A stretch of DNA of 64,000 bases from an uncultured Candidatus Saccharibacteria bacterium. GTDB taxonomy: Bacteria > Patescibacteriota > Minisyncoccia > Phycocordibacterales > UBA5272. Below, in pieces: positions 3,150 to 31,939 of the stretch (the stretch's first letter is position 1; each line of letters starts with the position of its first letter). A program made the position numbers and the translations under genes. The notes below the pieces were generated by a model. That model worked only from the letters and a program-made list of their open reading frames with translations. It had not been told where the DNA came from and ran no database searches. Location: NCBI GenBank assembly GCA_964621595.1, contig CAZUPO010000001.1, positions 78,758 to 142,757 on the forward strand, given 5' to 3'.

Positions 3150-3243
3150 ACAAAAATTGTACCACAACTAGGAAATTATTTCTCTGTAATTGGTAAGCGA
3201 TACAGAAGGATTGAAATTCAAAGATTCTATTACACGTTCTGGT

Positions 3244-5182: not shown

Positions 5183-6454
5183 CTAAAATACTGGTTTACC
5201 TATGACCGTCTTTCCACCCATATATGGAACTAACACCTCTGGGACTTTTACAGTACCGTCTGCCTGTTGAAAATTTTCGATGATAGCAGTAAGAAGTCTC
5301 GGCGTTGCTGCTGCGGTGTTATTAAGTGAGTGTGTATAGTGCATCTTTCCATCTTTATCCTTGTAACGAATATTGAGTCGGCGTGTTTGGTAGTCGTGGA
5401 AATAACTCGCGGAATGCGTCTCGCGATATTTTCCTTGGGATGGCATCCATGCTTCGATGTCATACTTCTTTACCTGTCCTTGTCCTAGATCTCCACCACA
5501 GATAAGTAACTTGTGATAGGGTATACCCAGTTCCTCCATCATCTCTTCTGAGTGGCGGGTTATTTCTTCGTGATGCTTCACTGATTCTTCATGAGAAGCA
5601 GCACAAAGTACGACCTGTTCACACTTATAAAATTCATGGACACGGATAAGACCCTTCACATCCTTACCATGACTCCCCGCTTCTTTTCGAAAACATGGAC
5701 TCCATGCGATGATCCTACGTGGAAGATCAGATTCTTGTAATACTTCATCACTGTGATAAAACATCGTAGCAACTTCTCCTGTTCCGGCTAGATAATCATT
5801 ACCATCCTTATACAAATCATCTTCTCCTTGTGGAAGATAGCCAGAACCAAGCAGTGCTTCACGTCGAACAAGTGAGGGTACGAGCATAGGCTCGAATCCT
5901 TTGTCTTGCCAACGCTTCATAACATACTGCCACACAGCTATCTCCAAAAGTGCTGCATCATTTTTAAGGAAGTATCCGCGAAAACCTGCCGTTTTTGTTC
6001 CACGATCAAAGTCAACGAAATTTTGCTTCTCCATGATCTCGATATGATCGCGTGGTGTGAATGAAAATGTTGGTAGTGTTCCCCAGGAAGCAATGTCAAC
6101 ATTTTCACTATCATCTTTTCCCTCTGGAACAGACATATCCGGCACATTTGGTACCGCAAGCATGAGTCGCCTCCATTCCACCATCACTTTTTCGAGTTCA
6201 TCTTCTTGTTTTTTCAGAGAATCTTTAACACCTTTCATCTCCTCGATGAGGGTTTGTCTTTCTGTGGCGTCGACTTTGGTTATCTTTTCACTTGTTGCGT
6301 TTTGTTTTGAACGCAATTCTTCTACAACACGTAGTATTTCTAGACGATCAGTGTCTACCTTTACAAGATCTTCGACCTTAAATGGAATATGCTTTTTTCT
6401 TGCAGCTTCTTTAATAATATCTTGGTTTTCGCGAATAAATTTGATATCTAACAT
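5183..6454 (-). CDS. serS: seryl-tRNA synthetase
   Basis: N-terminal coiled-coil arm, class II aaRS core motifs; start at MLDIKFIRENQ (ATG revcomp at 6452-6454); 424 aa. Confidence 0.85.
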   Translation of the reverse strand: MLDIKFIRENQDIIKEAARKKHIPFKVEDLVKVDTDRLEILRVVEELRSKQNATSEKITKVDATERQTLIEEMKGVKDSLKKQEDELEKVMVEWRRLMLAVPNVPDMSVPEGKDDSENVDIASWGTLPTFSFTPRDHIEIMEKQNFVDFDRGTKTAGFRGYFLKNDAALLEIAVWQYVMKRWQDKGFEPMLVPSLVRREALLGSGYLPQGEDDLYKDGNDYLAGTGEVATMFYHSDEVLQESDLPRRIIAWSPCFRKEAGSHGKDVKGLIRVHEFYKCEQVVLCAASHEESVKHHEEITRHSEEMMEELGIPYHKLLICGGDLGQGQVKKYDIEAWMPSQGKYRETHSASYFHDYQTRRLNIRYKDKDGKMHYTHSLNNTAAATPRLLTAIIENFQQADGTVKVPEVLVPYMGGKTVIGKPVF

Positions 6455-6522
6455 GATTTGTAATTGTACCATGTTTATAAGTTTTCTAAAATGTAAATAA
6501 AACAGGCTATACTTCGTGGTGT

Positions 6523-7209
6523 ATGGACCAAGAAAAAGCAGCAACAATGTTTAACGACCTGCACGGGGTAACCCCTCATGTGGGCCTTCATACTGAAGGA
6601 CATCATTATAAGCCAAAGGATCTAAGTAGTCGTGTCGCAAAGACTATCGTGCATTTCTCTGCAACGTGTGCTGACTTCCTTTTTCGAGAACGCTATGGTC
6701 ACCGAGCTATTGTTCTTGAAACAATTGCATCTGTGCCAGGAATGGTGGGCGGGTTATTTCAACATCTTAAGTCACTTCGATTTATTCGTGACGACAAGGG
6801 TTGGATTCGCGCACTCATAGATGAGGCAGAGAATGAGCGCATTCACCTCCTTGTGTATAGTTCGATAGCAAAGCCAACTATTATTGAACGTACGCTTATT
6901 ATTGTAGTTCAGTTTTTCTTTTCAATTATTTACGGGACACTGTACCTACTCTCTCCACGAACAGCCCATCGTGTCGTTGGATTCTTCGAAGAGGAAGCAA
7001 TTCATAGTTACGAGACGTATCTTCGTCTTGTTCATGAGGGTGTTCATGAAAATATAGAAGCACCGACCCTTGCAAAAAGTTACTGGAATCTCCACGAAGG
7101 CGCTCGACTTACTGACGTAATCGAAGCCACCATCAAAGATGAAATGCTTCATCGCGATGTAAACCATCGCTTTGCTGATGACCCACATGGAACTCAGATG
7201 TGGCACTAG
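6523..7209 (+). CDS. aox: alternative oxidase (di-iron ubiquinol oxidase, AOX/PTOX family)
   Basis: LETIASVPGMVGG, NERIHLL, EEEAIHSYETY, IKDEMLHRDVNHRF = the conserved E/ExxH di-iron ligand motifs of AOX. Confidence 0.75.
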   Translation: MDQEKAATMFNDLHGVTPHVGLHTEGHHYKPKDLSSRVAKTIVHFSATCADFLFRERYGHRAIVLETIASVPGMVGGLFQHLKSLRFIRDDKGWIRALIDEAENERIHLLVYSSIAKPTIIERTLIIVVQFFFSIIYGTLYLLSPRTAHRVVGFFEEEAIHSYETYLRLVHEGVHENIEAPTLAKSYWNLHEGARLTDVIEATIKDEMLHRDVNHRFADDPHGTQMWH

Positions 7210-7273: not shown

Positions 7274-9178
7274 TTATTTTTCGTCGAACCTCCAAATGCC
7301 ATCAAAGGTATCGTCGTGACGAACGACCTCTATACGTTCAAGTAGTTTCTCTGACGGCGCATCCCCCTCCATAGCTAAAGAACGAAGTATCTGCACAGCG
7401 TCATCAAAATGTTTTTCTTGATATCGTACAAAAGCTTCTTCGTATGTACTAATTCTCTCGACCAATCCTTCTTGTGCATGCATGACTTCGTACAAAACTG
7501 TTGGGAGAGTTTTTCCTTTTACGGTAATCACGTCGAGTTTTCTGAAAAGAATGTTCTTGGCGTCGATAGTTTTGCGAACATCCTCAGTAACAATAATTTC
7601 TACACCGTATTTCTTTGTGAGACCTTCAACACGAGAACTCAAATTCACGGTATCTCCAAGTATTGTATAGTTCACACGCTCATGGGACCCAACGTTTCCT
7701 ACAATAACCCCACCCCTGTGTACTCCTATCCCCATAGCAAGAGATGTGCCATGCTGAGTATTGAATTCTCGAAGAGCATCTTGCATGGAGAGCGCTGCCC
7801 GTACTGCATGAAGTTCATGATGAGAAACTTTAAGTGGTGCATTCCAGAAAGCCATAACTGCGTCGCCGATAAACTTATCGATCGTCCCCTTTTCTTCAAG
7901 AATTGGCTTTGTCATTGCACTAAAATAGGCATTTAACATCTTTGTTAAATCTTCCGGAGAAAGTGATTCCGAAAGTGTTGTAAAGCCACGCAAATCAGAA
8001 AACAACACCGTGACATCACGCTTTTCCCCTTCAAAATGTAGTCCTTGTGGAGAAGCAAGTAGCTCCTGCAATACATCTTTGTGCACATATTTAGAAAAAA
8101 GATTTTCAATATATCTGTTCTTCTTTTTTTCACGCACAAAACGGACCAATATGCTGTACGCGCCCGTTACAAGTGTTGTGACGATAAGGGCAGGAGCAGG
8201 TATCTCAAACCCTGCGCTAAATAGCACAAAGGAAAGCACGATCAGTGCAACAATGATTCCTACGATACTAGATATTTGACCCAAAACACTACGCGAAAAT
8301 CTAAGGGCAACATAGGTAAGAATGGCACATAGTAACACAAGAATGCATTGGAGTAATGCGGGTACCTCAACATCCTGCACTCCCTCTAATCGAGAGATAA
8401 GCGCACTTGCGTGAACATACACACCTGGAATTTTTTCACCAGAAAATGATACGAAGTGATCCTCCAGATCCAGTGACACAGAACCGATAAAAAGAATCTT
8501 GTCTTTGAGGGCCTCCTTAGGAACATTTCCACGAAGTACTTCAACAAGTGAGTACGTTTCGATGTGTTTTGGATATCTAAAATGAGTTACGTTACTTTCA
8601 CATGAGAGTTTACCTCTACCAAATGTCGCATCCATGAAAGCCCTGTCCGCAAGACCATAAAGGCACGCAGAATTATAAGAAAAAGGTGTTGGGTATGCAC
8701 GAACCTTCCCGTCACCATCTGGGTGAACATTTGCAATAGCACTCATGAGATGATCACTGTGAGCATCTTGTATAAGGAAACTTTCAAGCAACGTTTCTCC
8801 GTCTGTCTTCGCTCCTAGAATAATTGCACTCTTACTTTCTTGCAATGCTTTAATAAATAAATCATCACCACTTCTCTTCTCCAAGAAAAGTACATCGAGG
8901 ATAACTTCTCTTGCTCCAGCAGCACTAAGAGTTCGCACCAGGTCTGCAAAGATACTTCTATCCCACGGCCACGCACCAAGTGACTGTAAACTTGCATCAT
9001 CAATACCAATGATTGCGACATCGTTTCTTTCATCCTCCGTACGAACACTATCGTAAAAACGCCTTGAACTCTCTATACCTTTTGGCGAAAAATTCCAAAA
9101 GAGTATCAAGAAAATAATACAGCACGCACCAAGTAACTCATACTTCCGATCGATAAGTATGGGGATCAATTTTTTCAT
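7274..9178 (-). CDS. CHASE2 sensor domain-containing class III adenylate/guanylate cyclase
   Basis: N-terminal TM, extracytoplasmic CHASE2-like region, 3-4 TM helices, C-terminal cyclase homology domain (RDVTVLFSDLRGFTTLSE, FIGDAVMAFWNAP). Confidence 0.8.
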   Translation of the reverse strand: MKKLIPILIDRKYELLGACCIIFLILFWNFSPKGIESSRRFYDSVRTEDERNDVAIIGIDDASLQSLGAWPWDRSIFADLVRTLSAAGAREVILDVLFLEKRSGDDLFIKALQESKSAIILGAKTDGETLLESFLIQDAHSDHLMSAIANVHPDGDGKVRAYPTPFSYNSACLYGLADRAFMDATFGRGKLSCESNVTHFRYPKHIETYSLVEVLRGNVPKEALKDKILFIGSVSLDLEDHFVSFSGEKIPGVYVHASALISRLEGVQDVEVPALLQCILVLLCAILTYVALRFSRSVLGQISSIVGIIVALIVLSFVLFSAGFEIPAPALIVTTLVTGAYSILVRFVREKKKNRYIENLFSKYVHKDVLQELLASPQGLHFEGEKRDVTVLFSDLRGFTTLSESLSPEDLTKMLNAYFSAMTKPILEEKGTIDKFIGDAVMAFWNAPLKVSHHELHAVRAALSMQDALREFNTQHGTSLAMGIGVHRGGVIVGNVGSHERVNYTILGDTVNLSSRVEGLTKKYGVEIIVTEDVRKTIDAKNILFRKLDVITVKGKTLPTVLYEVMHAQEGLVERISTYEEAFVRYQEKHFDDAVQILRSLAMEGDAPSEKLLERIEVVRHDDTFDGIWRFDEK

Positions 9179-9211
9179 GGAGTAATTGTACTTGCGACAG
9201 TAGCGTAAGAA

Positions 9212-10567
9212 TTACTGGAATGGATACTCGTCATCGAAACGTGTTTGGAGTCGAGTCTTTAGCGCTTTGTCTTTGGTACTACAGTACGTATCGATCTGCT
9301 GTGCAAAATCACCGAGAGTTCCCGAGGTAAATGGATATCCGTTATTTTTTGCATAATCCAACACCGCCTTCATACGATCAGATGCTTTGGCACCTGTTGC
9401 ACACGGTGTATCGACATCATCAAGATAGAAATGTTTAATAAACAACGGTTCGAATGTAGAGTAAAACTTCTCCTCATCCATTTTGACCACCGTCCCGCCT
9501 GAGGTCGACGTATTGGTTGTATTGGTTGTGGTGGTTGTTGTCTTTGTGGTATCAGTTGTTGTCTTTGTTGTTTTGGTAGTTGATTTTGTGGTTTCAGTTA
9601 CCACTGGTTTTGTCTCTTCTCTAGGTGTTCCTTCTTCTTTTGTTTCTACCTTAGGTTCCTCTTGTACACGTGGTTTTTTGACAATTTCATTGATGTTCTT
9701 GTCCTCTTTTTCATTGTCCAAATCCTTAAAAATCTCTTTCTTCATCTCCTTACGGAACATGTCTTTGAAGAGTTCTTTCTGAGTACGTTCTTCTAACTTT
9801 TGCACCTCTGTATCCTTCTTCTGTTCTTCTTCGATCATTCGCTTCATCTCATCGATCTTTCTGTCATCAATTCTTTCCTTGTCGACAAATTGCTTCATTT
9901 CAGTGTCTTTGATAGTTTCTGTCGTAATCATAGCAACAACCGGATTACCCTTCAGATCCTTTCTTTCTTCTACAGAAATAGTTTTTCCTTCTGTTACCTG
10001 TACCATCTCCTCCTTTGTAGAAGTTGCTTGTGATTCAACTTCTTTTTTAACCTCTACAGTATGTTCGGTAACAGAGACTTTTGTTTTTTTCTTGGTTTTA
10101 TCATACTTCACACCAAACTTTGTTCCACGCACCGCAGCGAGAGTGCCTGGGGTCTTTACCTCATAACTACTACCCTTAGCGAGAGCCTCTACGCGATGAT
10201 ACGTCGAACCAAGTGTCTGAAGGATAGAAGTGTGTTCTGGAGAATATGTAATCGTAATCTCAGTATTTTCATCAAGAGAGATACTTGAGTTATCTGGGAG
10301 AAGTACAATCGCGGTACCAGTACCTGTTTTTACAACGGTATTATTATTAATTTCTGTTGGATTTTCTGTTGCTTTAAGGAATGTGTCCCCTCCGCTCTCT
10401 TTATACAAGACATCTCCACTCTTTGGATACAAGAGTATTGAGTATCCTTCTTTTTTAACCTCACTTGGTGAGGCAACAAACGTATCCGAACTTTTTTTAT
10501 TCATTACTAAAAATCCAACACCAATTGCAATAACAAGTACTGCTAAGCCCAATATACTTTTCTTCAT
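9212..10567 (-). CDS. membrane-anchored FecR-domain protein with K/E-rich coiled region and Thr-rich low-complexity linker
   Basis: MKKSILGLAVLVIAIGVGFLV signal-anchor; FecR-like block (VRGTKFGVKYDK); TTKSTTKTTKTTTDTTKTTTTTTNTTNTS tract; start at 10567 (alt 10636). Confidence 0.5.
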   Translation of the reverse strand: MKKSILGLAVLVIAIGVGFLVMNKKSSDTFVASPSEVKKEGYSILLYPKSGDVLYKESGGDTFLKATENPTEINNNTVVKTGTGTAIVLLPDNSSISLDENTEITITYSPEHTSILQTLGSTYHRVEALAKGSSYEVKTPGTLAAVRGTKFGVKYDKTKKKTKVSVTEHTVEVKKEVESQATSTKEEMVQVTEGKTISVEERKDLKGNPVVAMITTETIKDTEMKQFVDKERIDDRKIDEMKRMIEEEQKKDTEVQKLEERTQKELFKDMFRKEMKKEIFKDLDNEKEDKNINEIVKKPRVQEEPKVETKEEGTPREETKPVVTETTKSTTKTTKTTTDTTKTTTTTTNTTNTSTSGGTVVKMDEEKFYSTFEPLFIKHFYLDDVDTPCATGAKASDRMKAVLDYAKNNGYPFTSGTLGDFAQQIDTYCSTKDKALKTRLQTRFDDEYPFQ

Positions 10568-10719
10568 AGTCTCTGTAGTATACCCTTCTCGTACAAAAAA
10601 ATCGCGTGGATATTCTTCCTTTGCAAAATTACACAAAAATGGTATAGTAGGAAGACTTATTTTTAAATAAGTGGCATTATTTTGCTAAAAATAATGCCAA
10701 CTAGACAGAAAATAAACAA

Positions 10720-20655: not shown

Positions 20656-22401
20656 TTAACCTATTTGCTCTAGTTTTTTGTCTATTTCTTTTTCTGTGAT
20701 TTCAAGTCGCTTTTTGAATTTTTTAAGGATAGTTTGCTCTTCTTTTGTAAGTTCTCGCTTCTTCTCAGCCTTGACCAAAATAGTATGGAATTCTTCCGTA
20801 TCTCGACGAAGGGCGATGACATTAGTGCGCAAAGTATTTTCTACCTCGTCTATAGTACGACGAACCTTTCTTCTAAAGCGTGAAAACTGCACAAGTGAGT
20901 ACCAAAATGTGGCAACAATACAGAATGACGCTATAACAAGGATAAGTACAACTGACAACCAATTCATCACAAAAATACCCATTTTCACAAGAGGCACGTA
21001 GTCTACGATGATAGCCTTGTTGTTGGTGTAATCGCTTGCTGACCCCTTACTATCAACAACTCGAGCTTTCAACTCATAAACACCACGATCAAGATGTTTA
21101 CTCCAAGTAAGGTGGAAAACACCTGCCTCGTCAGAAGTTGTTGTTTCCGTTTCTATGTTGCCATCCTTATCAAGAAGGGCGACTTCTACGGTTGATGACG
21201 GATAAGTTGCACCTGCGACTTTGAGTGTGTTTTCGAAGGTTACGTTTTTTGTGTATTCAGTAATTGTCGGAACAGTAAGTGCTTGAATAGTGAAATCGAT
21301 TGATACAGTACTGGTGTTACCTGCTTTATCTACAGAACTAATTACAACAGTATGTTTACCTGATATTTGTCGTGATAGACGATATAAATGCGTTGGTTCT
21401 ACTTGATATTTAGTAGCCTCTCCCCCATCAACACTCATAGTTATGTAGTCAACACCAGAAAGGGAGTCCTCTGTCAGAATTTGTATTGCCGGGGTCGTAT
21501 TGGTAGTGACAACACCATCTGGGAAAGAAGCAGCGAGAGATTCTGGTGCCTGGGTATCTATTTGGAATTTAAAGTGAGCAACTGGTCCCCATGTCGTACC
21601 ATTTCTAAACTGCACATGCATGTACATGACGCCATCTTGATCGGCTACAAATGATCTATTAGGCACTGGTGGGTCATAGACCTTGGAGGGTGTTGAGTTG
21701 TCTTTTTCGTTATAGAGTGTTCGTACGGCAGTGACTTGAGGCGGCACTGTCCACTCAAATGTAGCCTCCCTGCTTTTATACCACTTATCAGAACTTGGGT
21801 GAGTGGGTGAAGTGATTGCTGGGATAAGAGTATCTGACGTTGGAGTTACTACCACTTGTGGTTCTGGTGTTTCTTGCGCCTCAGTTACGATGACAAAAGC
21901 AGAACCAAGTGTACCTGTTACATTTGTGGCATTGCCGTCATTTGCAAGAACTGATCCCGACTTAACGTTTATATTTATATTCCCGGCTTGCTTTGCTTTA
22001 AAGGTGACGGTAATGACTTTACCGGATGCGCCACTAAACCCAGGATTGAGTGCAACACCCTCCAAGGAGACCGTTCCATTACTATTAGAATATGATGGTT
22101 CTTCCGCCCAAAGATTTATAAAAGATCCCGACTTTGATAACGAGGTAACGGTGAGAACATCTGACGGGAAACTAAGCGCAGCAGAAACGGCATTTATGTT
22201 ATCTGTATTATTACTAACAAGAACATCAACTGTAAAAGTTTTGCCAACTTTGGTTGTGATAGAGGATGGCGTGAGAGAGATATTAGCTGCAAATATCGTC
22301 TGAGGAGCAAAACTAAAGACAACACAAAAGAGACCCAGTACTACGACTCTACTTCGTTGTCTTTTTAGTTGTAACAAGAACCGGTAGATAGTGCTTACCA
22401 T
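20656..22401 (-). CDS. secreted type-I membrane protein with cohesin-like and Ig-like beta-sandwich domains and cytoplasmic coiled-coil tail
   Basis: Signal peptide; cohesin-like block ISLTPSSITTKVGKTFTVDVLVSN...NPGFSGASGKVITVTFKAKQAGNININV; C-terminal TM VVLILVIASFCIVATFWY then KR/E-rich helix. Confidence 0.55.
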   Translation of the reverse strand: MVSTIYRFLLQLKRQRSRVVVLGLFCVVFSFAPQTIFAANISLTPSSITTKVGKTFTVDVLVSNNTDNINAVSAALSFPSDVLTVTSLSKSGSFINLWAEEPSYSNSNGTVSLEGVALNPGFSGASGKVITVTFKAKQAGNININVKSGSVLANDGNATNVTGTLGSAFVIVTEAQETPEPQVVVTPTSDTLIPAITSPTHPSSDKWYKSREATFEWTVPPQVTAVRTLYNEKDNSTPSKVYDPPVPNRSFVADQDGVMYMHVQFRNGTTWGPVAHFKFQIDTQAPESLAASFPDGVVTTNTTPAIQILTEDSLSGVDYITMSVDGGEATKYQVEPTHLYRLSRQISGKHTVVISSVDKAGNTSTVSIDFTIQALTVPTITEYTKNVTFENTLKVAGATYPSSTVEVALLDKDGNIETETTTSDEAGVFHLTWSKHLDRGVYELKARVVDSKGSASDYTNNKAIIVDYVPLVKMGIFVMNWLSVVLILVIASFCIVATFWYSLVQFSRFRRKVRRTIDEVENTLRTNVIALRRDTEEFHTILVKAEKKRELTKEEQTILKKFKKRLEITEKEIDKKLEQIG

Positions 22402-23308
22402 AATGGTACAGTAAGGTCATTACTATAACTATGTATACAAGTATACGGGACTTTTTACCAAGATCTGAAGAGTTTTCAACAGGTGGTAGAGTTACATACG
22501 TATATGTCTTGTTCGTATAGAACACCTTTGCATGCACGTAGACGTGACGAGACTGATTAAGTAGGACGTAGGGATTTGATCCAACATGCCAGGAGATATC
22601 TTCGATATGAAATGGGCTATACTCTCCACTCTCAGCGAATGCAATGTGATCAATGAGTAGACTTGAGTCATGTTCGAAGACAAACATATACAAACCTCCG
22701 TTGGAAACAGCATCATTATGATCCAAGGTATACGATAGCGTTGGTGAAGATACGTAAGAATATATGTTTTCGCTAGTGAGGTCTGGCTGCCGTAACATCT
22801 TGGGGACAAAAATTCTTTTTGCAAACTCCTTATTCGATAGGAGCGTGGCTGTCTCATCGAATGCTCGGATTTGCACTTCTTCTAAACGAAGTTCTGAGAT
22901 ACCTTCTTTTTTAGGAACAAGGTTGATAATAAACAGGAGTCCTGGAGAAGATCCCTTAGTTCTGGAAGAAAGCACTCCGCGAAACCCGCCTGGGATAATC
23001 CCATCAAAAACAATATGCGTTTTGTTATCGATATACTTTTCTTCTGCAATTTTAGGCGGAGTTACCCACAGTGGAATACTTGTGTTACCTGCGATGATAT
23101 TTTTCACAACAAAACTATCACTGCGAAATGTAAACTCACCACCGACACCACTCACAACGTCTCCCTCTGGATCAAGATACACGAGCACGGGTACGGGTTC
23201 TCCATTGGTACCGACCCTAGTAGGAGCCTCTAGGTAGATTCGAGCAGCAAGCGCTTGATCTGCGCCCCAGAGTATACTTAGTATTATAAGGAATAAAAAA
23301 TTTTTCAT
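22349..23308 (-). CDS. secreted protein with C-terminal membrane anchor (hypothetical)
   Basis: Signal peptide MKNFLFLIILSILWGADQALA, C-terminal hydrophobic helix + KKTTK; overlaps downstream gene by 53 nt. Confidence 0.45.
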   Translation of the reverse strand: MKNFLFLIILSILWGADQALAARIYLEAPTRVGTNGEPVPVLVYLDPEGDVVSGVGGEFTFRSDSFVVKNIIAGNTSIPLWVTPPKIAEEKYIDNKTHIVFDGIIPGGFRGVLSSRTKGSSPGLLFIINLVPKKEGISELRLEEVQIRAFDETATLLSNKEFAKRIFVPKMLRQPDLTSENIYSYVSSPTLSYTLDHNDAVSNGGLYMFVFEHDSSLLIDHIAFAESGEYSPFHIEDISWHVGSNPYVLLNQSRHVYVHAKVFYTNKTYTYVTLPPVENSSDLGKKSRILVYIVIVMTLLYHYGKHYLPVLVTTKKTTK

Positions 23309-23314
23309 AATAGA

Positions 23315-24241
23315 TTATCCAGTCCAACAATACGCAAGAATACTTAGGTCGGTGAGATTGACTCTTCCGTCACTATTGAGGTCGACCTTCAGTGGAAATC
23401 CGAGTCGTTTATACCAAAACGCCATAATACTAAAGTCTAACAAATTAACACGACTATCATTATTAAGGTCACATCTAGCGTTCACAAGACTTACCTTTGT
23501 TTTTCTCATAACATTTTGTTTACCAACAGTGAAAAGAAGTGGGTTAGAGAATGCTGACAGGGAACCTGCAGTTGAAGACCGAACCTTTGCTGTTAAATCC
23601 CCTTCTCCCACCTCTTTCGAATCAAACACTAGACGCCACGAACCATCTTTACCTGAGATTAGATTTTTTGTAATACCATTTTTATAATATACCGTAAGTG
23701 CTATATTAGAGTTTGGAATTGCTTTACCAGAGAAGATTATCGGTGTACCTCTCAGAACTTCTATTTTGTCCGAGGTGATGGTTGGAGACAGATAGATATC
23801 GTTAACTGTTGTAACTTCTAGGGGTGGGATATAGATTGTATAGGTTGTAATGGCAGAACTTAGACCATCGTACTCGGCTTTTATTCCAAAAGTATATGTA
23901 CCTGATTTTATGTTACGAACAGGTACTTCGAACGTACCATCCTGATTGGCAGGTAAGGTATTCAGAGGTAGACCATTCTTCAGAACAGTGACCATACTTC
24001 CCGGATAAGCGTACCCGCGGAAAAGTGCAGAATCTGTTCCAGACTCATCAGTGAGTGGAACACCATTATTAGTGATAGGACTTGGGCTGGGTGGCGGAGT
24101 TATGGGAGGGATTCCGTTGTCGTGAACGTCAGCAAATATATCGATAGATTCTTGTAGAGAAGCCGATAACTGGGCAGAAGCAAACTGAGTGAATGAAACC
24201 AAACTAACAAAAACAAAGGCTGTTTTTGTAAGTAGTCTCAT
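23315..24241 (-). CDS. secreted protein with C-terminal type-I dockerin module
   Basis: Signal peptide; C-terminal duplicated Ca-binding loops DLNNDSRVNLLDFSIMAFWY and DLNSDGRVNLTDLSILAYCW. Confidence 0.65.
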   Translation of the reverse strand: MRLLTKTAFVFVSLVSFTQFASAQLSASLQESIDIFADVHDNGIPPITPPPSPSPITNNGVPLTDESGTDSALFRGYAYPGSMVTVLKNGLPLNTLPANQDGTFEVPVRNIKSGTYTFGIKAEYDGLSSAITTYTIYIPPLEVTTVNDIYLSPTITSDKIEVLRGTPIIFSGKAIPNSNIALTVYYKNGITKNLISGKDGSWRLVFDSKEVGEGDLTAKVRSSTAGSLSAFSNPLLFTVGKQNVMRKTKVSLVNARCDLNNDSRVNLLDFSIMAFWYKRLGFPLKVDLNSDGRVNLTDLSILAYCWTG

Positions 24242-24249
24242 GACTCATA

Positions 24250-25233
24250 TTACTTGCCACTAGCAAGACGAGCCTGTTTAATAATCCAAGCGTTATATCG
24301 CTTAAGTGCGAGACGTAGGAGAGCAAATATAACGAGACAGATTACAAGAACAACAACCATAAGGTGCCATGGGAATACGAATAGATAAAGTGACTTAACT
24401 GAAGATCCACTATTTCCGAAAGTGACATTGAGTTTTGCAGAATAAACACCGAGTGCAAAGTTTCTCATTTCATACTTCACGAAAGTAAAGAATGATGCTG
24501 AAGTTGCTGGAGCATCTTCATCTCCCCACCGTACCTCAAAACGACGAATACTGCCTGGTAGAACGTTTCCTTCATTCTTGTTGGCATTTAAACTAACCGT
24601 GGTCATGCCAATCATGTTCTTCACTGTGATATCACCAGTTGGCTTCACGCGATCTCCACCGTTGTTATTGAAACGGTAAATAAAATCTACAGGAAGTGTG
24701 GTGATAAGTTTCTTTTCACCCTTAAGGAAGAATGAGAGTACACCCCCTTCTTCTTTAATATCACCAGATACACGAAGCATCATGAGCATCCCAATCTTTG
24801 CACCCACAGAAACTTCATTTTCACCTGAAGTTGGTGGTACAGTACTTAAGAAGATCGCAGCAAAATGTCCACCCGCATCTGCATCTTGAGGAACCTTAAC
24901 CTTAAAAGGAATTTTGATCTTTTCGCCAGGCTTGATAACAACTTTTTCTGTTACGTCTACCCATGAAGCAAGACCTATTTTTTCTCTGGTGAAATTAGGT
25001 GTTCCAGATTCTCCCTGTGCTTCAAAATTTTCAATAGAAGTATAGTACGTTTGCTCAATACTTTGCTCGTTAATGATCGTAAAGGTCTCCTCTACTATAT
25101 CGCCTGGATTTGCACCAAGTTCAACTTTTGCAGGAGAAATAGTGAGAGCACTGGCATACCCTACCGCAACGAAAGTAATAACTGGTAGCGCGAGTATTTT
25201 TAGGATTTTCTTGAACGTTCTAGCGTGTGTCAT
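24250..25233 (-). CDS. cell-surface protein with C-terminal TM anchor, DUF916/CscA-like
   Basis: Signal peptide, LTISPAKVEL...GGHFAAIFLS block, C-terminal TM + KR tail = architecture of Gram-positive DUF916 WxL-cluster anchor proteins. Confidence 0.4.
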   Translation of the reverse strand: MTHARTFKKILKILALPVITFVAVGYASALTISPAKVELGANPGDIVEETFTIINEQSIEQTYYTSIENFEAQGESGTPNFTREKIGLASWVDVTEKVVIKPGEKIKIPFKVKVPQDADAGGHFAAIFLSTVPPTSGENEVSVGAKIGMLMMLRVSGDIKEEGGVLSFFLKGEKKLITTLPVDFIYRFNNNGGDRVKPTGDITVKNMIGMTTVSLNANKNEGNVLPGSIRRFEVRWGDEDAPATSASFFTFVKYEMRNFALGVYSAKLNVTFGNSGSSVKSLYLFVFPWHLMVVVLVICLVIFALLRLALKRYNAWIIKQARLASGK

Positions 25234-25270
25234 GATAGGTTATTTGTGAGTGAATAATTGCTATACCTCT

Positions 25271-26359
25271 TTAGAAGTTAGCGGTTGCTACGTATGTGAG
25301 GTTGGCAGCATAGGTACCTGCTTCTGTAATCGCTGCGATGTTTGTAACATATCGTAATGAAAGAGTTGCTGTCGCGGTTGATCCTGTACCACTAGCAAAC
25401 AAGTCCGATGTAGTTGCTGTTGCTCCATATGCATATGATGATGCCGCTCCGTAGGCTGAAGCAATACTAACCCCCGTTCCACCTGAGAGAGTTGCCCTAA
25501 TACCGAACTGTTCCGTTCCAGGTGTTGAAGACGCATAACTAGAGCCAATTCCAGAAATAGTATTTGATGCATTTTGTAGTGAAGTAAGTGTTTGACCACG
25601 TACTGTAACAGAGAAACCAGACGCCGCGTTTGTTGATACACCTAATGAATGAGCAACTGTTTCAGTAGAATCACCTGAGGTATTTGTAGAAGAAGCGTAT
25701 TTTGCGCCACCTGAACCAAGAGTTCCGAAGTAGATAGTTGATGTAGAAATTGTAAACGTAAGAGACTGGTTAACTGTTCCTGTCATAGCAACAGTGTCAT
25801 CATCCAATATGTACACACCAATAGAACCTGTGTCTCCAAGAGTTCCCGCCAAGTCTACAGAGTACTGACCAGGTGTTGCTGGGTTTGTAATCTGTGATGC
25901 TCCTGCTGCTTGCGAGGTAGCATTCGAACCGATCTCAATCTGCACACATCGGTTAGCAGGAATTGTTGCAGTTCCTGAGGTGAAAGTAATAGTCTGACCT
26001 GACTGTGCTACACCCCATGTGTTACCAGATGCAGATGTTGAGAGTAGCGCATCGGTGAAGCCAGAACATGTTGCGGATGTTGAGGTTGCTAAGTCTACGT
26101 TGTTAACAGAGAAAGAGCCCATAGTAAACCCTGCTGGAAAAGTAACTGTAATCGTCTGACCAGCTGCGAGACCTGTTGGTGTAACGAACTGAATAGTATG
26201 ATCTGATAATGTACTAATTTTTACACTAGACATTGAATCAGAAAGAGACGACATTGATGCTGCATACGCAACGTTTAGTTGTATTACAGTACTACCAACA
26301 AGGACCGCAACACCCGTCAAAAAACTGAGTGCTGATTTATAATAACGCTTAAGAGACAT
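25271..26359 (-). CDS. secreted Thr/Ser/Gly-rich beta-rich surface protein, YVATANF-terminus family (paralog 1)
   Basis: Sec signal (AYA cleavage), C-terminal ~170 aa conserved with next two genes ending LTYVATANF. Confidence 0.55.
   Translation of the reverse strand: MSLKRYYKSALSFLTGVAVLVGSTVIQLNVAYAASMSSLSDSMSSVKISTLSDHTIQFVTPTGLAAGQTITVTFPAGFTMGSFSVNNVDLATSTSATCSGFTDALLSTSASGNTWGVAQSGQTITFTSGTATIPANRCVQIEIGSNATSQAAGASQITNPATPGQYSVDLAGTLGDTGSIGVYILDDDTVAMTGTVNQSLTFTISTSTIYFGTLGSGGAKYASSTNTSGDSTETVAHSLGVSTNAASGFSVTVRGQTLTSLQNASNTISGIGSSYASSTPGTEQFGIRATLSGGTGVSIASAYGAASSYAYGATATTSDLFASGTGSTATATLSLRYVTNIAAITEAGTYAANLTYVATANF
25959..26083. repeat. 125-nt tract 100% identical to 27164-27288 (inside paralogs 1 and 2)
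   Basis: Direct comparison of the two gene sequences; flanking sequence is only ~75% identical. Confidence 0.8.
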
Positions 26360-26475
26360 AATGATTTGTTTTACGTTTAAATAAAATAAGACTTCTACAA
26401 TCTTACTACTTCTAAGTTTATCACTACAAAATAGGTTTTTCTGTGGATAAAGTACTGTTTTGATCGCTAACCAAA

Positions 26476-27573
26476 CTAGAAGTTAGCAGTTGCTACATAG
26501 ATAACGTTCGCAACGTAGGTACCCGCTTCGGTTAGTGATGATATGTTGGCAACATACCGGAGTGAATATGTGGTGGTATTAGTCGCACCGGACCCTGTGG
26601 CAAAAGTGGCGGAAGTAGTGGCGGTAGCATCGTATCCGTAAGATGTTGCAGCTGAGTACGTTGAATCTATTGTAGACCCTGTTCCTCCAGAGGCTGTTGC
26701 TCTAATACCAAATTGTTCTGAGTTGGGGGTAGAAGAGGCCGCTGTTGCTCCTATAAATGCTATTGTATTTGACGCATTTTGTTGTGAGGTAAGTGTTTGT
26801 CCACGGACAGAAATAGTGTAACCTGAGCCAGCGTTTGTAGACACGGCAAGCGTGTGCGCAATAGTTTCTGTGGAATCCCCCAATACGTTCGTTGAGGAAG
26901 CAAACTTCGCCGCACCTGTACTTAGTGCCCCAAAGTAAATGGTTGATGTGGAAATAGTGAACGTAAGAGACTGGGAGACTGTTGCACTAATGGTAACGGT
27001 ATCGTTAGTAATAATATTTTGGGTCGTGGAACCTGTATCAGTAAACGTACCAGCAATATCGGTAGTAGTAGCACCAGCGGTAGCTGGGTTTGTAATCTGA
27101 GATACACCAGTTGCTCCAGATGTCGCATTGGAACCAATCTCAATCTGAATACAACGATTCGCTGGAATTGTTGCAGTTCCTGAGGTGAAAGTAATAGTCT
27201 GACCTGACTGTGCTACACCCCATGTGTTACCAGATGCAGATGTTGAGAGTAGCGCATCGGTGAAGCCAGAACATGTTGCGGATGTTGAAGTTGCCAGGTC
27301 TATGTTGTTCACAGAGAATGTGCCCATGTTGTATCCGAGCGGGAATGTAATAGTAATTGTCTGACCAGCCGCGAGACCTGTTGGGGTAACAAACTGGAAG
27401 GTATGGTCAGAAAGTGTACTAACCTTAAGGGTTGATTGGGAGTCAGATACTGAAGTAAGGGCGGCGGCGTAGGCAACTTCTAGTTGTGAACCGATGGTTC
27501 CAACTGCGACGCTAATAATCACCATGATACTTAGTGTTGAGTGAAATATCGAGTGTTTAAAAATTTTCGTCAT
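26476..27573 (-). CDS. secreted surface protein, YVATANF-terminus family (paralog 2)
   Basis: About 70% identical to paralog 1 incl. identical ATSTSATCSGFTDALLSTSASGNTWGVAQSGQTITFTSGTATIPANRC; ends VIYVATANF. Confidence 0.55.
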   Translation of the reverse strand: MTKIFKHSIFHSTLSIMVIISVAVGTIGSQLEVAYAAALTSVSDSQSTLKVSTLSDHTFQFVTPTGLAAGQTITITFPLGYNMGTFSVNNIDLATSTSATCSGFTDALLSTSASGNTWGVAQSGQTITFTSGTATIPANRCIQIEIGSNATSGATGVSQITNPATAGATTTDIAGTFTDTGSTTQNIITNDTVTISATVSQSLTFTISTSTIYFGALSTGAAKFASSTNVLGDSTETIAHTLAVSTNAGSGYTISVRGQTLTSQQNASNTIAFIGATAASSTPNSEQFGIRATASGGTGSTIDSTYSAATSYGYDATATTSATFATGSGATNTTTYSLRYVANISSLTEAGTYVANVIYVATANF

Positions 27574-27651
27574 GCAGTAACAAACCTAATGCACAATTTG
27601 GTTACTTATTACTTCAGTATACCACTTCTGCCCTATTTTTATTGGGGAAAA

Positions 27652-30600
27652 CTAAAAGTTTGCTGTCGCTACATACACAACACTTGTTGAGAAAACACTT
27701 GGTGGTGTGGTTGCTGCTATATTAAGAAGATACCTAACAGAAAATGTTGTTGTGGCATTATCACCGACTGTAGCACTAGCGATTGAAGATGACGTTGTGG
27801 CTGTTGCGGAATATGCAAAACCACTCGCGCTATAAGGAGTACTAACTGTTCCTGATCCACCGGTTGCTGTGAGACGAATGCCGAATTGTTCGGTATTGGT
27901 CGCAGATGCTGTATTGGTATTACCTATAGCATTAATAGTTGTGCTCCCTGAAGTCAATGTTGCGCCACGAACACTAATCGTATAGCCGTTAGTTGCATTT
28001 GTGATGACAGAAAGGGTGTGTGCCTCAGTTTCTACATCGCTCCCAAGAAGACTGGTACTCGATGCGTACCGCGATGCTACTGGACTAGCATTACCAAAAT
28101 AGACACTGGATGTTGAAATTGTAAAAGTTAATACCTGGGGTATGATTCCATTACTCTCCTCATCCCACTCCACTAAAAAACGATATCGTACGTTAGCGTC
28201 CCCCGTCGCCTGTTCATTATATAGTGCTATACCTTCACCAGATTTTAAAACCAGTTCATCGCCATAATAAATGCTGTCTTCTTGATCACCAAACGGTTGA
28301 TTAACTACGCCCGGTGTAGTTCCGCTAACGAGGCGAGACGACGTCGATTGCATTAATGAAACAGTAACGCCCGTTGTTCTTATTTCTGCTGTTGTTGTAG
28401 CAGTATTTGAGTGTTTCTTAGGAATACTTGTCGAGGCAACAGAGGTTCCGCCAGAATGTGAAGAGATTTTACGTAGACTAAACGGAGTATACGCCGGCAC
28501 CGTTGCTGCCCCACTACGATTTACCTTAGTCATTAATTTTTTAATGATAAAGTTTTTTCCTGACCCAGTTGGATTAAAAAAAGTTGAATACACATACCCA
28601 AGAGAAGTACTTTGATTTATTGGACCACTCGTATACAAATATTGACCTAAAGAAGACGGCGCACTCGCGGCCTCTTCCCACTCAATTAAAAGCCTTACAC
28701 GGAGGTCAGCATCTCCCGCTGCGTCTTGGTATAGACCAACTCCTTCTCCGGGCTGGAGAACAACGTCTTCGTTGTTAGAAAAAAGAACTTCTGCGTAACC
28801 AGTATTTCCTGCTGCAGCACTCGCTACAGCTCCCGGTGTTTGGATGGCTATCATTTTGGAATCAGTTGTACCAGAGAATGTCGCCGTTACACCTGTGTGT
28901 CGAATTTCCATAGAACTCGTGGCGCTCCCTGTATTTTTCTTTGGATAACTGCTCGAGGCAACGAGAGTACCTGCCGAGGCGGCACTGAGACGGCGCAATT
29001 GAATTGGTATATACACTGCCGCCGCAACGGTATCTACTCTGATTCGTATGCGTTTTATAATTGCTGTCTTACCAGAACCAGATGGATTAAAAAAAGTTAC
29101 GTAGTTATAACTTGCTCCAGTATTTCCATTTATTGGGCCTATAGACATAACATACTGGTTTTGGGCGGTTGGGGCGCTTGCTTCCTCATCCCATTCAATA
29201 AGAATTTTTACTGATAGAGCAGCACTTGAGGTAAGTACATCATTATATAAGCCAATCCCCTCCCCCTCTTTAATAACAAGTTTCTCATTATCACCAAAAA
29301 CAATTTCTTGTTGTCCAATAACTTGCCCGACAGCACCAGCGCCAGTAACAGAAATAATTTTTGCATTTGCATCCCCAGCATAGGTTGCCGTTATTGCGGA
29401 AGTACAGGCCTGTAAACACCAGCGTATCTCCATAGAACTTGTGGCACTACCTGTATGTTTTTTTGGGTAACTACTGGATGCAACAAGAGTGCCCGCACTC
29501 GCTGCAATTATGCGCCTAAATTGTAACGAAGTATATGCTGACGTAGTGGTAGCATTCGCACGAATTACAAGCCTTTTTATTATAGCTGTCTTTCCAGATC
29601 CAACAGGATTAAAAAATGTATATAGTGAAGTATTGGCTGCTGTTGCGGCAGCAACTTTGTCTGATGCCCAAATATACTCACCCTGAGAACTCGGTGTGTT
29701 ACCTGTCGTGACTTCACCCCACTCTATAATCATACGTGTTAACTGATTAGCGTTACCTGCTGCTTCTGATATAAGAGCAATACCTTCACCTGGCTGAAGG
29801 ATAAGTTGCTCATCGTGATGATCAAAATCAATCTCCTGCCATCCTGTGGCTTGCCCCGCCGCACCACAGGGAGTTACGTGCCCGAGGCGAGCATCTGTAC
29901 CACCAACTTGAGTTACTGTTACGTTGGTATACCGAAATTCCATCGAAGTCGTAGCACCGCTCGTATTTTTCTTTGGAATACTTGAGGATGCGACCGCAGT
30001 ACCAGCAGATGCTGCGGATATTCTTTTAAGAACAATGTTGTTGGTGTATACCGCTCCGGCATCGCATGTTTCCGAGCCAAACCATATTCTTTTTACGACC
30101 GCCGTTTTACCTGATCCTGATGGGTTAAAAAAGGAATTATATACATAATTTGCTGCTGCAGCATTTTCCACACGTGGAAATGCAAATAAAAACTCATTTT
30201 GCGAGGGTGGTGGATTAACAGTCTCATCCCACTCAATAAAAACACGTACCGCCGCTGCTGCGGTTCCAGCCGCTTCTTGATAGACAGCGACGCCTTCCCC
30301 TGGTTGCAAGACCAGAGTTTCTTCACTAGAATCAAACGTGATATCTCGACGACTATAGTACGATCCAACAGCACCTGAAAGAGGTTGTCCGAGGATGCGG
30401 GAATCAGTTGTACCAGACAAGGTTACAGTGGGGCCCGCTGTACGAACCTCCATAATTGAATCTGATGTACTAGCATTTTTATAAATATAACTAGTAGATG
30501 CGATTTGTGTTCCTCCTGTTGATGAAGATATCCTTCTCACACTTAAGTTAACGTAGTTAGACGCCGTGGAAGAAGCGGTATTCGCGCGAACTGCTATACG

Positions 30601-30936
30601 CTTTATAGATGCAGATCTTCCTGACCCGACTGGATTAAAAAAGGCTACGTAGACATAATTGGCTGTAACACTACCATTTACCGGACCAATATCAAGCATA
30701 TACTCTTTTTCTGCGGGGTTGATTGCAGCATGAAGTCTGCTGGTGTTCACGAGAAAAGAATCTACAACATTTTTGTTCTTTTTTGCTAAATAAATTTTAT
30801 CTACAATATTAGTATTATGAAAAGACTCTTTAACATTCGTAAAGACATAAAGAAGTGCCTCCGTATTAAAACTATATGAGAGAGTTACGCCTATAAGAAC
30901 AAGAACTCCTATCTTTTTAATGAGCCTGCGTAACAT
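27652..30936 (-). CDS. large secreted surface protein: five ~170-aa internal repeats + YVATANF-family C-terminal domain (paralog 3)
   Basis: 1094 aa; repeats each contain NYVY..FFNP.GSGK.A.IKRI..RAN and end LQPGEGI.LY......IEWDE; C-terminus VVYVATANF. Confidence 0.55.
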   Translation of the reverse strand: MLRRLIKKIGVLVLIGVTLSYSFNTEALLYVFTNVKESFHNTNIVDKIYLAKKNKNVVDSFLVNTSRLHAAINPAEKEYMLDIGPVNGSVTANYVYVAFFNPVGSGRSASIKRIAVRANTASSTASNYVNLSVRRISSSTGGTQIASTSYIYKNASTSDSIMEVRTAGPTVTLSGTTDSRILGQPLSGAVGSYYSRRDITFDSSEETLVLQPGEGVAVYQEAAGTAAAAVRVFIEWDETVNPPPSQNEFLFAFPRVENAAAANYVYNSFFNPSGSGKTAVVKRIWFGSETCDAGAVYTNNIVLKRISAASAGTAVASSSIPKKNTSGATTSMEFRYTNVTVTQVGGTDARLGHVTPCGAAGQATGWQEIDFDHHDEQLILQPGEGIALISEAAGNANQLTRMIIEWGEVTTGNTPSSQGEYIWASDKVAAATAANTSLYTFFNPVGSGKTAIIKRLVIRANATTTSAYTSLQFRRIIAASAGTLVASSSYPKKHTGSATSSMEIRWCLQACTSAITATYAGDANAKIISVTGAGAVGQVIGQQEIVFGDNEKLVIKEGEGIGLYNDVLTSSAALSVKILIEWDEEASAPTAQNQYVMSIGPINGNTGASYNYVTFFNPSGSGKTAIIKRIRIRVDTVAAAVYIPIQLRRLSAASAGTLVASSSYPKKNTGSATSSMEIRHTGVTATFSGTTDSKMIAIQTPGAVASAAAGNTGYAEVLFSNNEDVVLQPGEGVGLYQDAAGDADLRVRLLIEWEEAASAPSSLGQYLYTSGPINQSTSLGYVYSTFFNPTGSGKNFIIKKLMTKVNRSGAATVPAYTPFSLRKISSHSGGTSVASTSIPKKHSNTATTTAEIRTTGVTVSLMQSTSSRLVSGTTPGVVNQPFGDQEDSIYYGDELVLKSGEGIALYNEQATGDANVRYRFLVEWDEESNGIIPQVLTFTISTSSVYFGNASPVASRYASSTSLLGSDVETEAHTLSVITNATNGYTISVRGATLTSGSTTINAIGNTNTASATNTEQFGIRLTATGGSGTVSTPYSASGFAYSATATTSSSIASATVGDNATTTFSVRYLLNIAATTPPSVFSTSVVYVATANF

Positions 30937-31939
30937 ACGAGTAGGTTTTAAATCCTATATCCCTAAAAATAGTAGTTATTTCTTCTTCATTGAGGTGCCC
31001 TTTTTTCTTTTGTTCGATCATTACCGTGATAATATACGGCCGACCTGGGGCGTATACAATCCCAGAGTCTGCTCGTACATTTTCATCTATACGTATACCA
31101 GTTTTATGTACAAAAGGCACAGTCTCAGGAATACTTTGACCAAGAAGATCTCTTGGGGCATGGGAAAGAATGTCTAAGAAAAGTTGGGCGTATTCTTGGT
31201 TTAGATACGTTGCATTATAAAGAGATCGAAAAAAAATAGAATATCTCTTAGCTGTGATACGATTGTCTGCATCTACTTGATTCTTGGGTGATCGCTTTAA
31301 TGCCTCAATAATATCATCTAAACCCATATGAACATAAACGTCTTCGAGTTCTTCTCCGTCTAGGTTTCTTAGTAGTACAAAGTGTGCTGTATTGTCTGAA
31401 TCAATGAGTGAGGCTTCCAAAAATTGTCTGATAGTAAACGTACTACCTGATGGCTGTTTATAAAGATTGCCATATTCGCTATCTTTGTCATCATCAAGAA
31501 TTACTAATTCATTTGTTAATTTCCATTTCTTATCTTGAATTTTTTTCATAATAGCCATTGCAACAGGAATTTTAATGAGACTTGCCGGCCAAATCTTTTC
31601 ATCCTTATTCACCGCAATGTTGGCACCGGTTGGCAAATACTCGAAGTACACAGAGACAAGATAATCATCGCGATTTTCGTATGTTTTAGTAAGATAATCA
31701 CGTAGTTCTTGGAAATCAACAATACGATCTTTTTTCTCAATAATGAGAAGGGCGGGGTTAAGAAACGTTAATTTAGTGTTTTCTTTATGAGAAAGTACTT
31801 GGCTTGAAATAAAAACACCAATACAAAATCCAGCAAAAAGTATAGTGATGCTGACTAGCATTCTTTTTTCTAAAAAGAATGCTAGTACTGCTTGTTTTTT
31901 AACATGGTAATTATTGCTCATTATTATCTTCAATGACAA
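30917..31939 (-). CDS. membrane-anchored serine hydrolase, class-A beta-lactamase / PBP-like fold
   Basis: N-terminal TM, SxxK (PASLIKIP) and SDN (IDSDNTA) motifs. Confidence 0.5.
   Translation of the reverse strand: MSLKIIMSNNYHVKKQAVLAFFLEKRMLVSITILFAGFCIGVFISSQVLSHKENTKLTFLNPALLIIEKKDRIVDFQELRDYLTKTYENRDDYLVSVYFEYLPTGANIAVNKDEKIWPASLIKIPVAMAIMKKIQDKKWKLTNELVILDDDKDSEYGNLYKQPSGSTFTIRQFLEASLIDSDNTAHFVLLRNLDGEELEDVYVHMGLDDIIEALKRSPKNQVDADNRITAKRYSIFFRSLYNATYLNQEYAQLFLDILSHAPRDLLGQSIPETVPFVHKTGIRIDENVRADSGIVYAPGRPYIITVMIEQKKKGHLNEEEITTIFRDIGFKTYSYVTQAH

Follow-up and report, generated by a model that had tools for sequence, protein, structure and literature searches.

Background

That tandem paralogs undergo gene conversion is textbook knowledge. 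Its interlocus form (concerted evolution) has been described for duplicated bacterial genes like tufA/tufB in Salmonella and for multicopy surface-protein genes, and in Neisseria the pilE/pilS system, which makes use of silent truncated donor cassettes, brings about antigenic variation of the pilin of type IV pili. Here we analysed a stretch of DNA of 64 kb (from contig CAZUPO010000001.1; the whole stretch is further referred to as the window) that carries two tandem paralogous pilin genes, A and B, which share a tract of 125 nucleotides (nt) without a single difference. This tract has very probably originated from a recent interlocus gene conversion between the two tandem paralogs.

The filaments to which we relate these genes, the Pam pili, were described in 2026 for Candidatus Mycosynbacter amalyticus (PamA/PamB, WP_260763287.1 and WP_260763280.1; Troman et al., bioRxiv 10.64898/2026.03.03.709456). 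It was observed that PamA-to-PamB switches occur within single filaments, and the membrane-anchored PapD-like chaperones PamC and PamD were proposed to assemble the pili. Pam pilins were found mainly in Saccharimonadia and Microgenomatia, and recombination between paralogs goes unmentioned in the preprint (10.64898/2026.03.03.709456). A second group of systems that is relevant to the locus is formed by the WxL/WxLIP (DUF916-DUF3324) surface-protein clusters of Enterococcus and other Firmicutes (PMC10599100; PDB 9i25, 9i1y).

An island of complete identity in two diverged genes

All sequences used are metagenome assemblies, and contigs, not reads, were compared. The elements on which the analysis centres are the following:

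25271-26359, minus strand: pilin gene A (362 amino acids, aa), the A-type positional orthologue, which adjoins a chaperone gene
25959..26083, minus strand: tract copy 1, nt 277-401 of gene A, defined by exact identity and maximality
26360..26475, minus strand: spacer of 116 nt between B and A, outside the repeat
26476-27573, minus strand: pilin gene B (365 aa), the B-type positional orthologue, with the same architecture as A
27164..27288, minus strand: tract copy 2, nt 286-410 of gene B, a direct repeat of copy 1

The copies lie 1205 nt apart (start to start) and match over exactly 125 nt, the match not being extendable by one base at either end, in agreement with the identity between 25959-26083 and 27164-27288 that was claimed in the first-pass annotation of this DNA. 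It is the sole repeat of at least 40 nt within the window, where no third copy was found. The spacer lies outside the repeat, and each gene thus retains its own upstream region. The tract codes for S93-I133 and two bases of P134; the peptide of 48 aa (A91-C138) that was quoted for it earlier exceeds the coding capacity of 125 nt.

Globally aligned, A and B show 70.3% nucleotide identity (766/1089) and 70.7% amino acid identity, and when the tract is left out the nucleotide identity drops to 66.5% (641/964). In sliding windows of 60 bases the identity was 47-82% off the island and 100% within it, with values at the 5' side going from 82% via 93% to 100%, and at the 3' side from 93% via 85% and 77% to 68%. 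The identity is therefore concentrated in a sharp island, as had been anticipated, and not spread uniformly along the genes.

In the protein the tract is found inside the N-terminal beta-sandwich domain, between C98 and C138, two cysteines that are invariant across the family, its 3' end lying four residues short of C138. In the AlphaFold2 (AF2) model of A the region consists of a loop (93-113) and two strands (114-120 and 123-127) that form a hairpin (114-127). The region covered by the hidden Markov model (HMM) of the Pam pilins does not include the tract.

Homogenised synonymous sites

We compared the codons that specify the same amino acid in A and B, leaving out Met and Trp. Within the tract all 40 of these degenerate codons were identical at the nucleotide level, versus 94 of 212 (44%) outside it, and the chance of such an identical run of 40 codons is very small (p about 7e-15). 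Similarly, the Nei-Gojobori proportion of synonymous differences (pS) between A and B was 0.03 in the tract and 0.58-0.76, which is near saturation, in the other regions of the mature protein. Since all 40 degenerate codons are identical, against 44% elsewhere, selection at the level of the protein cannot account for the tract. The block of identical amino acids (D89-C138) is broader than the tract, and in the parts that extend beyond it (D89-T92 and A135-C138) the proteins are the same yet the genes show synonymous differences, four of which follow each other directly past the 3' edge of the tract.

Sister species and independent tracts

Scans of genome and metagenome collections yielded 44 related loci. 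The usual layout was that of a giant pilin of ~1100 aa, followed by 2-4 tandem pilins of ~365 aa and then the chaperone (in at least nine related genome loci the ~1100-aa gene precedes the small pilins). When residues 161-362 were compared, the last pilin before the chaperone was closer to A in 22 of 23 loci, and the first small pilin was usually closer to B. Judged from these sequence relationships, the A/B duplication is old and its position conserved.

The closest relative is a sister species (L032; JGI 3300045333) with an orthologue of B (P0012, gene 1 of that locus) and an orthologue of A, which we denote as B' and A'. In the flanks the orthologous pairs A/A' and B/B' are 0.72-0.87 identical, and A/B are 0.53-0.57 identical at residues 161-200. 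For residues 93-134, A equals B and A' equals B' (1.00), with an identity of 0.78-0.82 (a difference of ~21%) between window and sister species. A four-sequence sliding comparison thus showed phylogenetic incongruence, with positional orthology supported at the 22 of 23 loci: the flanks group the orthologues and the tract groups the paralogs of one genome. Together with the homogenised synonymous sites, this bears out the gene conversion between paralogs that the first-pass annotation had put forward. As the paralogs are identical within each species and ~21% apart between the species, a single ancestral event is excluded, and the sequences indicate that each lineage homogenised the region separately and recently relative to the species split. 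The sister species has an exact tract of its own of 237 nt (residues 82-161; 8254-8490 / 9442-9678), the edges of which are unlike those in the window. Residues 150-156 of its A-type gene show the B-type sequence (SGATGV, not SQAAGA), which suggests a B-to-A transfer in that lineage.

Exact tracts were also found in four other loci:

L022: 362 nt, residues 48-163
L015: 398 nt, residues 18-150
L059: 698 nt, 2998-3695 / 5314-6011, starting 3 nt upstream of the start codon
L006: 786 nt, 3491-4276 / 6000-6785, starting 1 nt upstream of the start codon

These four loci and that of the sister species are mutually only 65-72% identical, and the events must therefore have been independent. In the other 19 of the 24 loci with at least two paralogs from the collection scans, the longest exact runs were 8-38 nt. 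A search for hybrid proteins among the 120 homologues listed exposed a sixth converted pair (P0075/P0088). In both L006 and L059 the tract joins the first and the third of three tandem pilins, the gene between them having no more than 66-74% identity with either, so that conversion, or a partial re-duplication, has skipped the adjacent copy.

The tracts are not distributed evenly over the genes: all six include residues 93-134 and none extends past residue 263. For a uniform placement of tracts of such lengths the probabilities are about 0.008 and 0.0004, respectively (post hoc, for six events). In non-converted pairs the C-terminal domain is about as similar as the core of the N-terminal domain, and local similarity is for that reason not an obvious cause of the bias.

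A probable conversion event between A and B

The event in the window would have been a recent non-reciprocal homologous recombination between A and B that left a footprint of 125 nt. The stretch coding for part of the N-terminal domain in one copy would have been replaced by that of the other via heteroduplex formation and repair, and both flanks of A and of B would have been left in their original, diverged state. The molecular route may have been RecA-type recombination with a non-crossover outcome. With a crossover between the direct repeats, by contrast, the 1205-nt unit would be lost or doubled and a hybrid gene would result; no B/A hybrid gene was found in the 10 examined of 16 chaperone-bearing contigs, nor among the 120 homologues listed.

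Several points weigh against this reading. The direction of transfer in the window is one of them, as the nearest outgroups differ by only 0.68-0.70, which is too close to call. A RarA-like gene was the only recombination gene seen in the window, where no search was aimed at recombination machinery. An assembler based on de Bruijn graphs might have merged near-identical paths, so that the true identity is perhaps 97-99%; in that case the event would be older, though not different in kind. Finally, the bias towards the N-terminal domain rests on six events and on statistics that are partly post hoc.

Alternative explanations

The identity could be an artefact of a metagenome assembler that merged two differing tract sequences into one, by collapse or by consensus, or that joined parts of the paralogs into chimeric genes. 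All sequences compared were assembled from metagenomes, assemblers struggle with the tract, as several contigs that break precisely there show, and bubble-popping could mask a few real differences. Nevertheless, identical sequence was obtained from separate samples that were processed with different pipelines (JGI, ENA/SPAdes and Logan). The samples with this organism are JGI 3300045398, 3300045395, 3300045392, 3300045356 and 3300045354, ENA ERZ17987222 and ERZ27283041, and SRR23702482, SRR23702483 and SRR12487046. A JGI contig of 8.7 kb carries both genes and is 100% identical to the window, an ENA contig (L002) spans gene A and both its flanks at 99.8% identity with all differences outside the tract, and a JGI contig (L004) spans gene B. 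In four other metagenomes a contig ends at or inside the repeat (L050 starts at 27288, L051 at 26083 and L055 at 26013, and L004 ends at 26037), as expected for a true repeat that exceeds the k-mer of the assembler. Contig ends at the exact tract borders are the behaviour of a true exact repeat, and the first-pass annotation was right in calling the locus assembly-sensitive. Moreover, for A as well as for B the two flanks match a single orthologue in the sister species, which argues that the phasing in the window is not chimeric, and like tracts with different edges are present in five other genomes. Even an island of at least 97% identity over a background of ~66% would still require conversion. 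We consider an artefact of this kind very unlikely. As a practical consequence, a true direct repeat of 125 nt fragments short-read assemblies, and metagenome-assembled genomes (MAGs) of this organism tend to break here. Mis-joined or chimeric pilin genes in MAGs could result, and converted segments should be masked in pilin trees and structures.

Programmed variation is another possibility, in the form of cassette conversion of the pilE/pilS type, of the template/variable pair of a diversity-generating retroelement (DGR), or of a reversible deletion that yields a B/A hybrid pilin. The earlier notion of a surface family is correct insofar as the genes are pilus subunit genes (NF058581), and surface filaments of a probable epibiont (10.64898/2026.03.03.709456) would be plausible objects of such variation. 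The direct repeat with its spacing of 1205 nt is a substrate for deletion and duplication, relatives have between two and four small pilin genes, and conversion recurs at the same place. Both copies are however complete genes, each with a start codon, a predicted signal peptide and its own upstream spacer, and therefore not silent cassettes. The converted segment is conserved and not hypervariable, and the ratio of nonsynonymous to synonymous divergence (dN/dS) between orthologues was 0.04-0.14 in every region where dS was unsaturated, which gives no sign of the variation pressure on surface antigens that had been proposed for the locus. On the basis of the full-length copies, the conserved tract and these ratios we rejected cassette-type antigenic variation. 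A DGR was rejected because the copies show no mismatches, a third copy is lacking and no reverse transcriptase was found in the 28 open reading frames (ORFs) scanned, which are a part of those in the window. The absence of hybrid genes in the contigs and homologues mentioned above likewise speaks against a reversible deletion, and programmed variation as a whole seems improbable to us to about the same degree as an artefact. As far as observed, the conversion has made the two genes more alike and has not diversified them.

A selective constraint that keeps the tract identical, acting on the protein, on codon usage or on a nucleotide-level element (an RNA structure, a regulatory site or a recombinase site), can practically be dismissed: the tract does encode a conserved part of the N-terminal domain, within a wider block of identical protein and with both invariant cysteines near, but the protein-identical flanks differ at synonymous sites and the tract of the sister species is ~21% different yet shows no difference between the two copies of that species. 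Ordinary divergence was seen for the region in 46 non-converted within-genome pairs, with a nucleotide identity of 0.62-0.65 and a codon identity of 0.44-0.50 that were not above those of the rest, so that there is no sequence element preserved across species. We discarded an RNA element, as Rfam gave no match in 24000-31500 at E<=1 except for a single chance-level one elsewhere, and the predicted RNA fold of the tract was not unusual (z = -0.18). An overlapping gene was discarded as well, since neither the other frames nor the opposite strand have an ORF of at least 80 aa that overlaps the tract. The number of promoter-like sequences at the locus was the same as in shuffles, and terminator-like sites were found at ~2x the shuffled mean, none of them attributable to the tract or to a gene end.

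Restriction to the N-terminal domain

With gene conversion as the preferred explanation, the question arises why the tracts are found where they are. One possibility is that selection upholds the restriction to the N-terminal domain, in the form of a domain-selective concerted evolution driven by co-polymerisation. A shared surface of the N-terminal domain would keep the A-type and B-type subunits compatible at the contacts between N-terminal domains in a mixed filament. The C-terminal groove domain and a variable, paralog-specific loop (161-197) would be shielded, as they might encode the order of the subunits or the specificity for a chaperone. Conversion of the C-terminal domain, which would carry the groove for donor-strand exchange, or of loop 161-197 would then be selected against, and homogenisation of the core of the N-terminal domain would be tolerated or even favoured in co-assembling subunits. 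We regard this scenario as rather improbable. If true, the Pam pilin arrays would be a case of domain-selective concerted evolution. The repeated exchange in the N-terminal domain alone provides a testable hint that the linker, the C-terminal domain and the variable loop must stay distinct, and that other parts may or must be shared.

The pilin array

Two further genes complete the array of pilins and their presumed partner:

27652-30936, minus strand: giant pilin (1094 aa), the first gene of the pilin array, without the tract
24250-25233, minus strand: putative membrane-anchored pilus chaperone (327 aa, PamC/PamD-like), the next gene downstream of A

The NCBIfam model NF058581 (CPR_Pam_pilin_C, Pam pilus system pilin subunit; CPR stands for Candidate Phyla Radiation), which has a cut-off of 55 bits and the match of which covers the C-terminal ~135 residues, recognised A (66.8 bits), B (63.8 bits) and the giant pilin (67.8 bits). 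Pfam gave no match in A or B. Gene A encodes a predicted signal peptide, the N-terminal beta-sandwich (~35-190), a linker strand (~198-212) and the C-terminal Pam-pilin domain (226-362). The linker contains the motif QSLTFTISTSTIYFG, which is invariant in the family and belongs to its most conserved segments. The AF2 model of A, built from an alignment of 30 sequences (pLDDT, the predicted local distance difference test, of 83), contains ten strands in 37-185, an isolated strand (200-204) within QSLTFTISTSTIYFG and a C-terminal beta domain (237-360). At the N-terminus a hydrophobic helix (model residues 3-24) is followed by VAYA/A. A Foldseek search with this model against the PDB, in a copy without a Pam entry, returned only generic tandem Ig-like folds, no WxL chain being present among the top 50 structural hits, and a profile of the pilins found no relative among the PDB sequences.

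The giant pilin consists of five tandem repeats of ~172 aa, followed by the linker motif and the C-terminal Pam-pilin domain. The repeats belong to no Pfam family and are seen in the protein alone, as a tandem-repeat finder reported nothing for the DNA of the gene. Each repeat contains a Walker-A-like motif, FFNPxGSGK(T), and has (I/V)EW(D/G/E)E at its end; this pseudo-P-loop gives spurious weak matches to ATPases and ABC proteins. The repeats could form an adhesive tip or the shaft of the pilus.

By their HMM matches, architecture, chaperone partner and restriction to the CPR, A, B and the giant pilin are Pam pilins at the level of the genes, for which donor-strand exchange is predicted. A and B are, on the same grounds, anciently duplicated tandem genes for predicted subunits of a Pam-type donor-strand-exchange pilus.

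The chaperone and neighbouring genes

The chaperone has a predicted signal peptide, and its AF2 model (pLDDT 79) shows a pair of Ig-like beta-sandwich domains with a transmembrane helix at the C-terminus (289-324). The best Foldseek matches were with WxLIP of E. faecium (9i25_C and 9i1y, E about 2e-11), followed by chaperones of chaperone-usher systems (CfaA, CsuC, Caf1M and FimC) and RbmA. At the sequence level the Pfam WxLIP_PGBD match was weak, all Ig-like/WxLIP matches in Pfam and NCBIfam were sub-threshold, and some homologues of the chaperone carry the annotation DUF916. The modelled profile is that expected for a chaperone of the PamC/PamD type, and we therefore call the protein a putative one. 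Of the eight proteins of the locus that were scanned, none was a PamT equivalog (23 bits versus a cut-off of 240).

Downstream of the chaperone gene three further genes for secreted or membrane-anchored proteins are found in the same orientation (20656-24241, minus strand), and the gene order is the same in the sister species. They encode an Ig-domain protein of 308 aa with a C-terminal type I dockerin (PF00404, 30.5 bits, cut-off 22.9), a protein of 319 aa with a C-terminal hydrophobic segment, and a Big_13/OmpL47-like protein of 581 aa with a hydrophobic, probably transmembrane segment near the C-terminus that is followed by a charged tail. A dockerin within a pilus operon is unusual. Directly upstream of the pilin array lies a gene for a serine-hydrolase-like protein of the class-A beta-lactamase family (30917-31939, minus strand; PF13354, E 3e-41), which overlaps the start of the giant pilin gene by 20 nt and has the same neighbour in the JGI contig. 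It may encode a cell-wall remodelling enzyme that is co-expressed with the pilus. Elsewhere in the window, and unrelated to the tract, a CHASE2-domain adenylate/guanylate cyclase (634 aa) is encoded beside a FecR-domain protein (474 aa), forming a signalling pair (7274-10636, minus strand).

Host and distribution

The seryl-tRNA synthetase (SerRS) encoded in the window groups with those of Patescibacteria/Paceibacterota, and by this sequence the host of the locus is an ultrasmall bacterium of the Patescibacteria (Paceibacterota/Parcubacteria-like). The named homologues come nearly all from MAGs of Parcubacteria, Paceibacterota, Pacebacteria, Saccharibacteria or Gracilibacteria, the exceptions being one labelled Polynucleobacter and one labelled only 'bacterium'. 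In the MAG of Polynucleobacter sp., a betaproteobacterium, a contig (L027; SSFP01000101.1) carries a Pam-type pilin and a homologue of the chaperone (P0193). This contig was probably binned wrongly and belongs to a CPR epibiont, so that it would not be a true occurrence outside the CPR.

Significance

As an example of gene conversion the tract is genuine yet ordinary. It lies in a pilin family that has been named only recently, and it does not overturn current understanding. Modestly new are the occurrence in Paceibacterota-like genomes of Pam-type pilin arrays that comprise ancient A/B paralogs and a giant pilin with repeats, and the recurrence of conversion limited to the N-terminal domain.

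Comparison with known systems

The tract resembles the conversion of tufA/tufB in that there is an island of identity that includes the synonymous sites, with sharp edges and with incongruence between the within-genome and between-species relationships. It differs in that only an internal segment of 125 nt (up to 786 nt in relatives) has been homogenised and the rest of the genes is at saturated synonymous divergence, and in that the same sub-region has been hit in six independent lineages. With Neisseria pilE/pilS the locus shares gene conversion among pilin-coding sequences. Unlike that system, the window lacks silent truncated donors, the converted part is conserved and under purifying selection, the outcome is the homogenisation of two genes of the expressed type, and the pilus would be one of donor-strand exchange and not a type IV pilus.

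Several features are shared with the Pam pili as described. All three pilins of the window exceed the curated cut-off for the C-terminal pilin domain, a pair of invariant cysteines is present in the family, several pilin paralogs are found in one operon with a two-domain, PapD-like and C-terminally anchored chaperone, and nearly all named relatives belong to the CPR. The Paceibacterota/Parcubacteria-like host, on the other hand, is unlike the main Pam hosts of the preprint. The array also differs from the description of the Pam system, as it combines a pilin of 1094 aa with five repeats and two pilins of ~365 aa that are 70% identical, whereas PamA and PamB have low mutual identity.

Finally, the pilins of the window differ from WxL proteins in having no WxL match in Pfam and no WxL chain among the top structural hits. 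Nevertheless, WxLIP is the best structural match of the chaperone, ahead of the chaperone-usher chaperones, and the window and the WxL clusters have in common a small protein, a large protein with the same C-terminal domain and extra N-terminal domains, and a partner with two domains (of these partners, the protein of the window alone was seen to have a C-terminal transmembrane helix). This similarity in structure and layout hints at an evolutionary link between the Pam and WxL systems.

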